This document shows positions 13,708 to 24,753 of a DNA stretch of 32,000 nt, piece by piece. The notes under the pieces were generated by a model. The model saw only the letters and a program-made list of their open reading frames with translations. It made no database searches and had not been told where the DNA came from. The stretch comes from an uncultured archaeon (GTDB lineage: Archaea > Asgardarchaeota > Lokiarchaeia > Sigyniarchaeales > Promethearchaeaceae), in the NCBI GenBank assembly GCA_964426185.1, contig CAYRPF010000014.1, forward strand, positions 1 to 32,000. The letters are read 5' to 3'. The position numbers were made by a program, and so were the translations under genes. Numbering within the stretch: the first letter of the stretch is position 1; each line of letters starts with the position of its first letter.

Positions 13708-14781
13708 ATGGCCATTACTTCCCCAGAAATGAATTTTGAAAATTCTGATGGTGAAAATAACCCCCACAACAGAATATCTCTCTATACTATAAAGGATTAT
13801 CGCGAAATCGGGCAAAAATACGATGTTTTTTTGGCTAATGCTAGTGTAGCCTACCGAAAAGGTAAATCCATCCTTCATGATATAACTCTCTACTTAAAAC
13901 CGGGGGAAATTTTAGGACTCATTGGAGGAAGTGGCGCTGGAAAAAGCACATGTATGCGTGTGATGACTGGGCAAATTAAACCACCGCAGTTGACTCATGG
14001 ATTTGCTGTAACCGCAGGTTGTCGGGCGGTTAGAGACAATCTCAAGTTAATTCAAAAAATAGGTTATGTTCCTCAACTAGAATATCTTTCACTTTATGAA
14101 GAATTTTCTGCCTTAGATAATTGCTTATTTTTCGGAAGAAATTACTGCATTCCAAAGAAGCAGATTCTTAAGCGCGCTCGGGAAATTCTTCAAATTCTTG
14201 GATTTGAAAACGAAGAGCTTTTAAAGAAACCCGTCAAATATCTTTCAGGAGGTGAACGAAAAAGGGTCTCAATTGCGGTCGGCTTGATAAATACCCCTCG
14301 GGTCTTGTTTCTCGATGAGCCTACTACGGGGCTGGATCCTCACTTAAGAATTGGTGTTTTAAACTTTCTCTTGAAAATCAACAAAGAATTTAATACCACC
14401 ATGATTATCGTTTCGCATGATTTAGAAATTGCGGATTACTGCACGAAAGTTGCGATACTAAATTATGGAGAGTTGGCAGGTTTCGGTAAACCAAAGGAAT
14501 TGATAGAATCTTTACCGAGTAAGGGAAAAAATCTTACAGTTCATTTCCAGAACTATAATTTCCGCAAAAATTTAAAACAAGTTCAAAATATTTCTGGAGT
14601 AGAGTATGTACTAAATACTGGTCGAAACCAGATCAAAATTTTTTCAGATTCAATAGAAGAATATCCAAACATAATTAAACAATTGGAGCAAATTGGCTTG
14701 GAGATTTCACATTTCAGCTTAGATCATTCTGTTTTTTTGGATTATTTTAGAATAAAAGGAAAACACATTACAGGAGTATGA
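13708..14781 (+). CDS. ABC-2 exporter ATP-binding subunit 1
   Basis: Walker A GGSGAGKS, Q-loop GYVPQ, LSGGE, Walker B LFLDEPTTGLDP, H-loop SH. Confidence 0.95.
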   Translation: MAITSPEMNFENSDGENNPHNRISLYTIKDYREIGQKYDVFLANASVAYRKGKSILHDITLYLKPGEILGLIGGSGAGKSTCMRVMTGQIKPPQLTHGFAVTAGCRAVRDNLKLIQKIGYVPQLEYLSLYEEFSALDNCLFFGRNYCIPKKQILKRAREILQILGFENEELLKKPVKYLSGGERKRVSIAVGLINTPRVLFLDEPTTGLDPHLRIGVLNFLLKINKEFNTTMIIVSHDLEIADYCTKVAILNYGELAGFGKPKELIESLPSKGKNLTVHFQNYNFRKNLKQVQNISGVEYVLNTGRNQIKIFSDSIEEYPNIIKQLEQIGLEISHFSLDHSVFLDYFRIKGKHITGV

Positions 14782-14787
14782 TTTTAT

Positions 14788-15975
14788 TTGACTGAAGAGA
14801 TTTTTTCTGATGCTCGTTCTCGTGCATTAAGAATAACTAACATGGTACGAAAAGAAATTAAGAGCTTGCTATCAGATAAAACTGCGATTTTTATCTTGTT
14901 TTTCATTCCTTTTTTGCTCATCACGATTTTAGGGACTTCGCAACCCAATCTAGAAGCGACAAATACGACTATCTGGATAATTGATTATGATAATTCAGAA
15001 ACTTCTGAGCAGTTTATTGAAACCATGAAATCCTTGAATCTGTCATTGGCAATAGGTCAAAAAATTAGTGTTAGTTTTTTCACTTCTGGTGAACTTGCCC
15101 CCATTCAACCTAATTTTGGAGAAAAGGAGACTTATGGATTGGTTTCCGAGGAACTTGCCCAAAAAACATTAACTACTCAATTTCTAGATGCATATATTAT
15201 ATTACCCGAAGGATTTGAAGATAATATCAAAACCAATGGAACAACTCCCATTATTGTTTATTATGATTCTATTGATTTTATGAAAATGCTCGTTTCAGAC
15301 ATGGTTGTTTTAGCTGGTACCAGCGAAATTCAAATGAAAAATATGTTATTTGAGCGTGATATCATCTATTTTCCCGAAACTCGCCCTGAAAACCTGGATC
15401 TCAATATATTAGATATGGGTGCCCCAAATTTCGTTCCCTTAATGCTTTTCATCACCATGCAACTTATTTCTTCTCAATCCATTGTGGGTGATATTCCTCT
15501 ACGACGACTTTTGAACACTTCTCTCAAACGCGGTGAGGTAGTTACTGGAAAATTAATCGCCTATTCCTTCATTGGAATTATCCAAGTTCTCCTTACCATG
15601 GCTTTGTTATCCATTTTCAAAGTAACTATGCATTGCTTGTGGTTTGATCTTTTCTTGATTTTATTGCTTAATTCGGTGGCGGGTATTTCTATGGGTATTT
15701 TCATTTCAGTTGTTACGAAAAGTCGATTACAAGCATCTCAATTATTTCTTCTGCTCTTTTTCCTAATGTATATCAATGTATATTATGTTCGCAATATATT
15801 TTTCCTTACATTCATACCGATTGAACAGACGCGCAAAATTTACGAATTTCTTGCTTACCGTGGAAAGGGATTATCCATAGTTTGGGAACCAATCCTTTTT
15901 ATGACAATTACTGGGTTGTTCTTTTATGTGGCTTCTATAGTTTATATAAAATATATCAAAAAGGAGTTCATCTAA
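14788..15975 (+). CDS. ABC-2 type permease 1 with extracellular domain
   Basis: KEIK.LL.DK amphipathic start, TM1, extracellular loop (IIDYDNS ... YIILPEGF), then about 5 TMs; TTG start. Confidence 0.9.
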   Translation: MTEEIFSDARSRALRITNMVRKEIKSLLSDKTAIFILFFIPFLLITILGTSQPNLEATNTTIWIIDYDNSETSEQFIETMKSLNLSLAIGQKISVSFFTSGELAPIQPNFGEKETYGLVSEELAQKTLTTQFLDAYIILPEGFEDNIKTNGTTPIIVYYDSIDFMKMLVSDMVVLAGTSEIQMKNMLFERDIIYFPETRPENLDLNILDMGAPNFVPLMLFITMQLISSQSIVGDIPLRRLLNTSLKRGEVVTGKLIAYSFIGIIQVLLTMALLSIFKVTMHCLWFDLFLILLLNSVAGISMGIFISVVTKSRLQASQLFLLLFFLMYINVYYVRNIFFLTFIPIEQTRKIYEFLAYRGKGLSIVWEPILFMTITGLFFYVASIVYIKYIKKEFI

Positions 15976-24512: not shown

Positions 24513-24522
24513 AAAACTGAGG

Positions 24523-24753
24523 ATGCATATGAGTTCATATCAATATAGAAGGCGGATAATTGTTCGAAAGAGAATATTAGATGCATTTATCTTAACTTTA
24601 TCATTAGGAAGTATTATTGGGGCTCTGGGGATGATTTTTTATTGTGCGTATCAACTAAAAATTACCAGTGTAAAGCCTTACATTATGTTCTTCATAATAA
24701 TTGGATTAGGATTATTTGGCATTCGCATTTTTCAAAAAGAAGCGGAAATATAA
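24523..24753 (+). CDS. Small two-TM membrane protein
   Basis: Basic N-terminus and two hydrophobic helices; GAGG before the ATG; 10 nt after the pseudoprotease stop. Confidence 0.7.
   Translation: MHMSSYQYRRRIIVRKRILDAFILTLSLGSIIGALGMIFYCAYQLKITSVKPYIMFFIIIGLGLFGIRIFQKEAEI

Follow-up and report, generated by a model that had tools for sequence, protein, structure and literature searches.

A conserved Asgard archaeal gene cassette encoding a predicted type V ABC exporter and a subtilase pseudoprotease of S1P- and OST48-like architecture

The DNA analysed here is a 32,000-nt stretch of contig CAYRPF010000014.1, read on the forward strand (the window; coordinates refer to it unless another locus is named), from an Asgard archaeal assembly of 3.26 Mb that is 92% complete. 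Positions 13708-24753 hold a gene cassette that encodes a predicted ATP-binding cassette (ABC) exporter together with a very large subtilase-like protein lacking catalytic residues. The cassette consists of six open reading frames (ORFs), all in one orientation (+), which encode, in this order, ATPase 1 (13708-14781), permease 1 (14788-15975), permease 2 (15978-17198), ATPase 2 (17236-19176), a pseudoprotease of 1777 aa (19179-24512) and a microprotein with two transmembrane (TM) segments (24523-24753). The ORFs are separated by 6, 2, 37, 2 and 10 nt, and their coordinates agree with an earlier description of the same sequence (the preliminary description), which had reported six tightly spaced, co-oriented genes with these gaps. 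Two of the genes, those of permease 1 (14788) and the pseudoprotease (19179), start with TTG; for permease 2 a longer form starting at the TTG at 15882 is possible, for which orthologue alignments give no support. A scan for promoters and terminators gave the same counts as shuffled sequences, with models that are of the bacterial type and whose coverage does not extend to archaeal signals.

ATPase 1 (357 aa) contains a canonical ABC nucleotide-binding domain (Pfam ABC_tran, E 3.6e-26) and a DrrA-like C-terminal domain, the drrA model TIGR01188 matching residues 56-343. Its motifs GGSGAGKS, LSGGE, LFLDEP and VSHD are intact, both in the window protein and in 19 orthologues, and identity among orthologues is 44-83% across Asgard families. 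The corresponding part of ATPase 2 (18022-19176, +) comprises the nucleotide-binding domain (ABC_tran, E 1e-29, residues 267-410), a DrrA-like C-domain (drrA over residues 264-544) and a charged C-terminal tail, and here the motifs GESGAGKS, LSGGQ, IFLDEP and ISHY are intact. The Walker A motif, the signature, the Walker B glutamate and the H-loop are kept in both ATPases and in about 19 orthologues of each, the one exception being the divergent signature of ATPase 2 at locus L020, and this conservation is consistent with the presence of two working ATP sites. The ATPases had been described before as paralogues with intact catalytic motifs, and translations and orthologues agree with this; the four shorter motifs listed at the time for the ATPases (SLP.KG and DYF) and the permeases (IDYDNS and SQ.IV.DIP) are all present in the translations.

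The two permeases are paralogues as well, as had been proposed: they share 24% identity, and both match ABC2_membrane_3 (PF12698) above the cut-off of 31.6 bits (71.3 bits for permease 1 and 57.7 bits for permease 2). Each has six hydrophobic segments, of which the first two are separated by 165-155 residues, forming in permease 1 an outside domain of about 165 aa between TM1 and TM2; this topology is derived from hydropathy only. A PDB search with the single sequence of permease 1 gave no match, and a profile search was needed to reach solved transporters, namely the ABCH/ABCG23-like chains 9ju6 and 8z01 (E 6e-14 to 1e-13, profile positions 108-378). In the permease tree, the permease 1 clade (support 100/99) and the permease 2 clade (100/100) have an identical species order, which indicates that the pair arose by a single duplication at the base of family f1 plus genus g13 of family f3 (families and genera are designated f and g).

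The first 262 residues of ATPase 2 (17236-18021, +) form an N-terminal extension that is conserved throughout the phylum and has no Pfam match. An AlphaFold2 (AF2) model of this region (mean predicted local distance difference test score, pLDDT, 80.4) consists of two helix-plus-beta modules, the second of which (residues ~61-246) resembles the effector domain of TrmB. Structural comparison with VIA-align placed the sugar-binding domain of TrmB first (3qph and 2f5t, Z 12.2 and 12.0, rmsd 1.5-1.6, 21% identity; runner-up Z 7.4), the 85-91 aligned residues corresponding to one subdomain. Sliding clamps, the top Foldseek hits at a TM-score of ~0.13, were rejected as spurious, the exhaustive aligner putting TrmB clearly first. 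Stand-alone proteins of 158-166 aa that match only the first module (E ~1e-12) are encoded in f26 genomes, where the N-domain profile hits lie at G297:C18:6087-6377, G298:C53:10882-11172 and G299:C184:3322-3615.

With PF12698 scores above threshold, six TM segments per permease, similarity to solved transporters and intact nucleotide-binding motifs, these four proteins have the features of a type V (ABC-2) exporter. Among the closest known exporters of this kind are the heteromeric YbhFSR and RbbA-YhhJ: as in the cassette, their ABC2_membrane_3 permeases occur as two paralogues with a large first outside loop, and the cassette proteins match the RbbA model. In the Wzm/Wzt ABC-2 exporter, the ATPase Wzt carries a carbohydrate-binding domain that selects the glycan cargo, and the TrmB-like domain of ATPase 2 is analogous to it, although the extra domain is N-terminal here and has a different fold. 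Neither YbhF, in which the ATPases are fused, nor the homodimeric Wzt works in a system with a giant accessory protein.

The pseudoprotease starts with a basic N-terminus, a signal anchor (residues 11-29) and a subtilase prodomain-like region (residues 1-170; 19179-19688, +). In a family profile built from 13 orthologues, the part starting at position 51 corresponds to the propeptide of pro-Tk-SP (3afg, residues 17-124) and then to its catalytic domain. The S8 subtilase domain proper (residues 171-520; 19689-20738, +) matches PF00082 with 118.8 bits and was aligned to Tk-SP with HMMER; it scores higher against this archaeal enzyme (190 bits) than against the site-1 protease S1P (122 bits). The remainder of the ectodomain was modelled with AF2 from a 55-sequence alignment (residues 531-1700, pLDDT 80.7). 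Its first part, for which no Pfam family was matched, is a beta super-sandwich (residues 531-915; 20769-21923, +) like the N-domains of glucoamylase and of glycoside hydrolase family GH116 and GH94 enzymes (VIA-align Z 19-20 over 230-270 aa; 1ug9, Z 19.9, 233 aa, rmsd 2.9; 1lf6, Z 19.1). It is followed by a middle region with beta-sandwich strands in the model (residues 916-1189; 21924-22745, +), in which CARDB matches at E 0.0044, below the cut-off. Next come a GIFT (GATase-like) domain (residues 1190-1545; 22746-23813, +) and a membrane-proximal beta-sandwich (residues 1546-1678; 23814-24212, +), with strands at 1017-1128 in the numbering of the model. The GIFT region passes the Pfam thresholds of DUF4350 (39.9 bits, cut-off 30.4) and IFT52_GIFT (30.1 bits, cut-off 27.2), and its model superimposes on IFT52 (5fmr) with Z 21.9 over 210 aa (rmsd 2.8). 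The protein ends with a C-terminal TM helix (residues 1679-1697; 24213-24269, +; hydropathy 2.29, helical in the model) and a predicted cytosolic tail of 80 aa that ends in GEHY and is conserved among orthologues (residues 1698-1777; 24270-24512, +, including the stop codon).

This order of domains is that of S1P (MBTPS1/SKI-1), in which prodomain, S8 domain, beta-sandwich, GATase-like (GIFT) domain, TM helix and cytosolic tail are colinear. The family profile matches S1P in three colinear stretches, two of them in S8 and one over residues 696-862 (GATase-like, independent E 8.5e-6). In the model, the protein aligns from residue 1065 onward with the post-catalytic domain of S1P (residues 1065-1543 with human S1P 479-873, Z 18.8, 312 aa). 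The MBTPS1-specific family PF23090 gave no match to the window protein at E <= 0.01, and word-indexed protein searches, which returned 12 and 9 matches and no eukaryotic S1P, were uninformative on this link. The Asgard protein differs from S1P in lacking the catalytic His, Ser and oxyanion Asn, in having ~530 extra residues after the S8 domain and in possessing an N-terminal anchor and an operon link to an ABC transporter. Its C-terminal third also resembles OST48/Wbp1, a non-catalytic scaffold with a GIFT domain, a second lumenal beta domain, a single TM helix and a short tail: residues 1190-1700, which include the TM helix, align with 6s7t_G and 8b6l_N with Z 17-18 over 336 of 410 residues. 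This similarity is at the level of the fold, the Pfam model for the DDOST 48-kDa subunit having no match in the window protein at E <= 0.01; unlike OST48, the Asgard module is only one part of a much larger protein and has no oligosaccharyltransferase context. Published Asgard WBP1 homologues have been reported only in Heimdallarchaeia (PMC10307638). The S1P-like architecture and the GIFT domain had been noted in the preliminary description, and Pfam, profile and model alignments support them, as hydropathy does for the helices at both ends.

In the S8 domain of the window protein the catalytic Asp is kept (D194), while the catalytic His is replaced by Arg, the oxyanion Asn by Asp and the nucleophilic Ser by Gly; in the alignment to Tk-SP, GRGTF stands in place of GHGTH, GDDGP in place of GNSGP and SGTG in place of SGTS. 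The earlier assignment as a dead protease is confirmed by these substitutions and by their conservation in orthologues. The oxyanion residue is Asp in every cassette-linked orthologue, and the nucleophilic Ser has given way to Ala, Gly or other residues in almost all of these proteins, a Ser being aligned at that column only in L033. Asp and His are retained outside Lokiarchaeales; Lokiarchaeales replace the His, and f4 additionally replaces the Asp. By these alignments, the dead protease is the ancestral state of the cassette-linked family and the loss of the catalytic His is an addition of Lokiarchaeales. It could be supposed that the S8 domain has remained proteolytic by means of non-canonical residues, with the ABC transporter exporting or importing its products. 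The retention of Asp and His outside Lokiarchaeales and a Thr preceding the lost Ser fit such an activity, which we nonetheless regard as highly improbable, given the three substitutions in the window protein, the f4 members that lack even the Asp, and the active Asgard paralogues (see below), which retain GHGT, GN[DE]G and SGTS. Although catalytically dead, the S8 domain has the highest conservation within the protein (78/60/54%; the next domain reaches 61/38/33%), and the cytosolic tail ranks second. This argues for a conserved non-catalytic function.

More than 25 loci, distributed over many families, contain the cassette, so that the arrangement is, as judged from this recurrence, far beyond chance. 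Its core consists of a permease, ATPase 2 with the TrmB-effector-like N-domain, the pseudoprotease and ATPase 1, and is found in at least 10 Asgard families, with the pseudoprotease gene usually positioned between the two ATPase genes. The full set of ATPase 1, permease 1, permease 2, ATPase 2 and pseudoprotease is present in all full-length loci fetched from f1 and from g13 of f3. In f19, f30 and f31, a permease gene comes first, followed by those of ATPase 2, the pseudoprotease (~1400-1480 aa) and ATPase 1, with gaps of 0-7 nt; in f4, one permease and both ATPases are oriented divergently from the pseudoprotease gene; and f5, f7 and f21 contain the cassette in a rearranged form. The preliminary description had treated the six genes as one system. 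They do behave as a unit, whereas the six-gene form is an elaboration, found in Lokiarchaeales, of the four-gene, Asgard-wide core: on the distribution of the genes, the second permease and the microprotein are Lokiarchaeales additions.

The microprotein (76 aa; 24523-24753, +) has two hydrophobic helices, as previously described, and homologous ORFs of 56-76 aa are present 0-109 nt downstream of the pseudoprotease gene in nine loci of f1 and f3/g13. The members share a conserved Pro loop and a C-terminal end of the form G-x-R-x-[WFY]. No such ORF was detected after the pseudoprotease gene in f4 or in the other families scanned.

Two scans of one set of 400 Asgard genomes, with the post-S8 part of the pseudoprotease and with a profile of the ATPase-2 N-domain, gave matches in 127 and 137 genomes, respectively. 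Both scans were positive for f1, f4, f5, f19, f20, f21, f30, f31 and g13 of f3, and both were negative for f13 (0/31), f15 (0/12), f16 (0/22), f18 (0/12) and the other genera of f3. One phyletic pattern therefore holds for both the pseudoprotease and the special ATPase. They are also lost together: the closed f1 genome G011 has no pseudoprotease match and contains, at L054:9013-9493 (G011:C1:3445012-3445492), a 480-nt remnant of the ATPase-2 N-domain with four in-frame stops, within 20 kb of which there is no other cassette gene. Linkage, co-occurrence and co-loss thus hold throughout the phylum, which answers the question of gene-neighbourhood conservation that had been left as a check on the original proposal. 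In an exhaustive profile search of 1.84 billion representatives, ~50 full-length members of the pseudoprotease family were found. The named members are all Asgard (Promethearchaeota, Ranarchaeia), except for one 4.7-kb contig labelled Bathyarchaeota; they are annotated only as "S8 family serine peptidase" or hypothetical, and the closest orthologue is labelled Lokiarchaeota. This label and the ESCRT-II and Vps4 genes near the cassette (see below) place the contig among the Asgard archaea, in the order Lokiarchaeales. No description of the cassette was found in the literature on Asgard S1P, OST48, subtilisin and ABC-2, on GIFT/GldG or on pseudoproteases.

The cytosolic tail of the pseudoprotease is 75-83 aa long in 20 of the 22 orthologues with a callable last TM helix. 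In the other two it is only 14-18 aa, and these are exactly the loci in which ATPase 2 lacks the TrmB-like N-domain. There (L032:7902-8870, +, f5 g27; L041:13067-14044, +, f7 g29), the TrmB-effector-like modules are replaced by ~320 residues of winged-helix repeats with PCI, UFL1-like, DDRGK-like and TrmB-HTH matches. The coincidence of short tails with winged-helix forms of ATPase 2 suggests that the tail of the pseudoprotease docks on the N-domain of ATPase 2.

We consider it probable, though by no means certain, that the cassette encodes a single membrane complex, in which a type V ABC exporter carries a non-catalytic S1P/OST48-like ectodomain subunit whose tail is docked on ATPase 2. The two ATPases would form a heterodimer with two competent ATP sites, and the two permeases a heterodimeric ABC-2 exporter core. 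The 1777-aa protein would be an integral accessory whose N-terminal anchor and C-terminal TM helix pack on the permeases. Its GIFT domain, beta-sandwich and TM helix would form a scaffold close to the membrane, comparable to those of OST48 or GldG, with the dead subtilase and the glucoamylase-N-like domain forming a non-catalytic extracellular binding head. Contact between the 80-aa tail and the TrmB-effector-like domain would couple the ATPase cycle with the ectodomain, and the microprotein would be a lineage-specific extra membrane subunit. Most likely, such a complex would use ATP to export or present a glycoconjugate or lipid of the cell surface, which the ectodomain would receive; that the cargo is perhaps of this kind is hinted at by the sugar-binding fold of TrmB, the super-sandwich of the glucoamylase-N type, the module resembling OST48 and the class of exporter. 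The preliminary description had pictured a membrane machine in which the dead protease acts as a receptor or chaperone energised by the transporter, and linkage, alignments and models support three parts of this picture: that the genes behave as a unit, that the protease is dead and that it is built like S1P.

Several observations weigh against a single complex of this kind. Contacts among the cassette proteins are predicted from gene linkage, co-inheritance and the folds of the single proteins, and the hints of sugar are at the level of folds only. Co-occurrence is given here as patterns and not as statistics, related genomes being non-independent samples, and the co-variation of tail and N-domain may have arisen only once, since the permeases of the two loci are sisters in the tree. 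The pseudoprotease gene is located away from the ABC genes in f20 and one genome of f5, and no homologue of the ABC proteins of the window was found beside five stand-alone GIFT genes of related genomes. An uncleavable prodomain may block the cleft of the subtilase domain. Finally, models of Gld-type transporters score below their cut-offs or give no match: the ATPases score 122.5 and 119 bits against the GldA model TIGR03522 (cut-off 402.6), GldF is not among the NCBIfam matches of the permeases at E <= 0.01, of which the best are RbbA- and SagH-type, and ABC_transp_aux (PF09822) scores 22.9 bits on the pseudoprotease, below its cut-off of 34.7.

These scores bear on the analogy with GldA/GldF/GldG of Bacteroidota gliding that had been drawn at the outset. 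Part of it stands: both systems are of the ABC-2 class and have an operon-encoded accessory with a GIFT-type domain between N- and C-terminal TM helices, and the Asgard protein has two flanking hydrophobic helices and a conserved adjacency to the transporter genes, with DUF4350 and IFT52_GIFT passing their thresholds and PF09822 remaining below. However, the transporter is not of the GldA/GldF type, and a GIFT domain alone is no sign of an ABC partner. The Asgard accessory is three times larger than GldG because its dead S8 domain, its super-sandwich domain and its conserved tail in the cytosol have no counterpart there, and the Asgard system has two different ATPases, one of them with a TrmB-like domain, and is confined to Asgard archaea. 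By sequence, the cassette is not a member of GldAFG; it encodes a predicted ABC-2 exporter with a GIFT-type accessory.

The unlinked genes raise the question whether the ABC transporter and the S8-GIFT protein are functionally separate and merely co-located or co-regulated, a view to which stand-alone GIFT proteins and active S8-GIFT paralogues without ABC neighbours also lend weight. In the unlinked cases (f20 and G163), however, the ATPase with the special N-domain is still encoded elsewhere in the genome. Mere neighbourhood sits badly with the insertion of the pseudoprotease gene, at distances of 0-7 nt, between the ATPase genes of many families, with the matching phyletic patterns and the joint loss in G011, and with the co-variation of tail and N-domain, and we judge it quite improbable.

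A cargo-free mode of action has more to recommend it. ATP-driven changes in the ectodomain might activate, remodel or release a surface partner, in the manner of mechanotransmission known from FtsEX-EnvC, in which the LytM factor is dead, and from LolCDE and NosDFY. As in FtsEX-EnvC, a dead hydrolase domain would serve as a regulatory or binding module in an ABC-driven system, and NosDFY illustrates that an ABC-2 permease is able to work with a large periplasmic partner. The pseudoenzyme partner with its large ectodomain and two anchors, the conserved tail that co-varies with the ATPase-2 N-domain and the two intact ATP sites would all suit this role. Against it, the permeases are type V ABC-2 proteins with ABCH/ABCG-like matches, a fold typical of lipid and glycan exporters, and not type VII permeases such as FtsX or MacB, whose fold serves most mechanotransducers, and no target enzyme is conserved beside the cassette across families. 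We hold mechanotransmission to be unlikely.

Signalling in the opposite direction can also be envisaged, in which the dead subtilase binds an extracellular ligand, the signal passes through the TM helix and the tail to gate the ATPase, and the TrmB-like domain senses a cytosolic metabolite. Subtilase pseudoproteases are known as receptors, CspC and CspA being the precedent (PMC7200643), and the strong conservation of the dead domain and the tail, as well as the TrmB-effector-like fold on the ATPase, would fit. The Csp proteins are, however, soluble spore proteins without an ABC link, and the window protein scores 59.3 bits against the CspC non-triad model NF040808 (NCBIfam), whose cut-off is 675. 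The cassette has neither an output domain nor a regulator that is conserved, and an outside-in receptor leaves the constant co-inheritance of a complete exporter unexplained. We find it improbable.

If the exporter complex with its ectodomain subunit exists as proposed, it would be the first known ABC-2 transporter with a pseudo-subtilase as a built-in extracellular subunit, and a family annotated throughout the phylum only as S8 peptidase would acquire a testable function. In any case, the cassette represents a widely conserved, uncharacterised envelope system in the archaea closest to eukaryotes, and it is carried by cultured Lokiarchaeia, in which the hypothesis is testable. It has a bearing on the origin of secretory-pathway proteins because the ectodomain shares the colinear architecture of S1P and the scaffold module of OST48. 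A further step would be to regard the cassette as an ancestral Asgard machine whose accessory stems from the prokaryotic lineage that gave rise to eukaryotic S1P, with a scaffold shared with OST48. We consider this rather improbable; were it true, the S8-GIFT-TM architecture, which today governs lipid homeostasis in the secretory pathway of eukaryotes, would have had its first role beside a lipid or glycan ABC exporter, and active (~1260 aa) and dead (~1400-1780 aa) versions would already have been separate in the Asgard ancestor.

A second Asgard family with an S8 domain, of about 935-1340 aa, is represented by L043:7127-10900 (-), L042:8030-10837 (-) and, in the genome of the window itself, L048:6895-10689 (+, contig C10). 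The two members checked (L042 and L043) have the full triad and a GIFT domain. Protein P0088 of L043 matches MBTPS1_4th (PF23090) at 3.8e-5, below the cut-off, and the family member with this match ends in a zinc ribbon. The paralogue in the window's own genome is not linked to ABC genes, and all source names of the family are Asgard. This triad-keeping S8-GIFT family may be the closer counterpart of eukaryotic S1P. In addition, several Asgard genomes encode small stand-alone GIFT proteins of the IFT52 type (290-360 aa; L055:5913-6992, +; L058:6302-7174, +; L056:4688-5647, +), of which the two that were checked pass the Pfam threshold. Where checked, the neighbours of their genes encode penicillin amidase, Cdc6, TldD and similar proteins. 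A GIFT domain by itself was rejected as a marker of an ABC partner, since the stand-alone genes adjoin no ABC genes.

In f30 and f31, a gene for a giant protein of more than 1900 aa comes immediately after the cassette (L034:14270-19954, +; L040:3-5882, -; homologues in L035-L037 and L044-L046). This protein combines a beta-propeller at its N-terminus with ~30 bacterial TSP3 calcium-binding repeats and might serve the system of these families as a surface partner or as cargo; nothing comparable adjoins the cassette in the window. Here, the flanks (12087-13625 and 24854-26029) encode an 8-TM protein of 381 aa, a 1-TM protein of 102 aa and a 391-aa protein with an N-terminal Zn-ribbon, for which no Pfam function was found and whose synteny is limited to a genome of the same genus. 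These genes, together with the HEAT and DsbD-like genes, were rejected as parts of the system because their synteny does not extend beyond the genus or family. Genes for ESCRT-II proteins (EAP30/Vps36-like and Vps25-like; ESCRT, endosomal sorting complex required for transport) and for Vps4 are present at 27137-30096, 2.4 kb downstream of the cassette, and in several f1 genomes DsbD-like and Vps36-like genes remain close to it.

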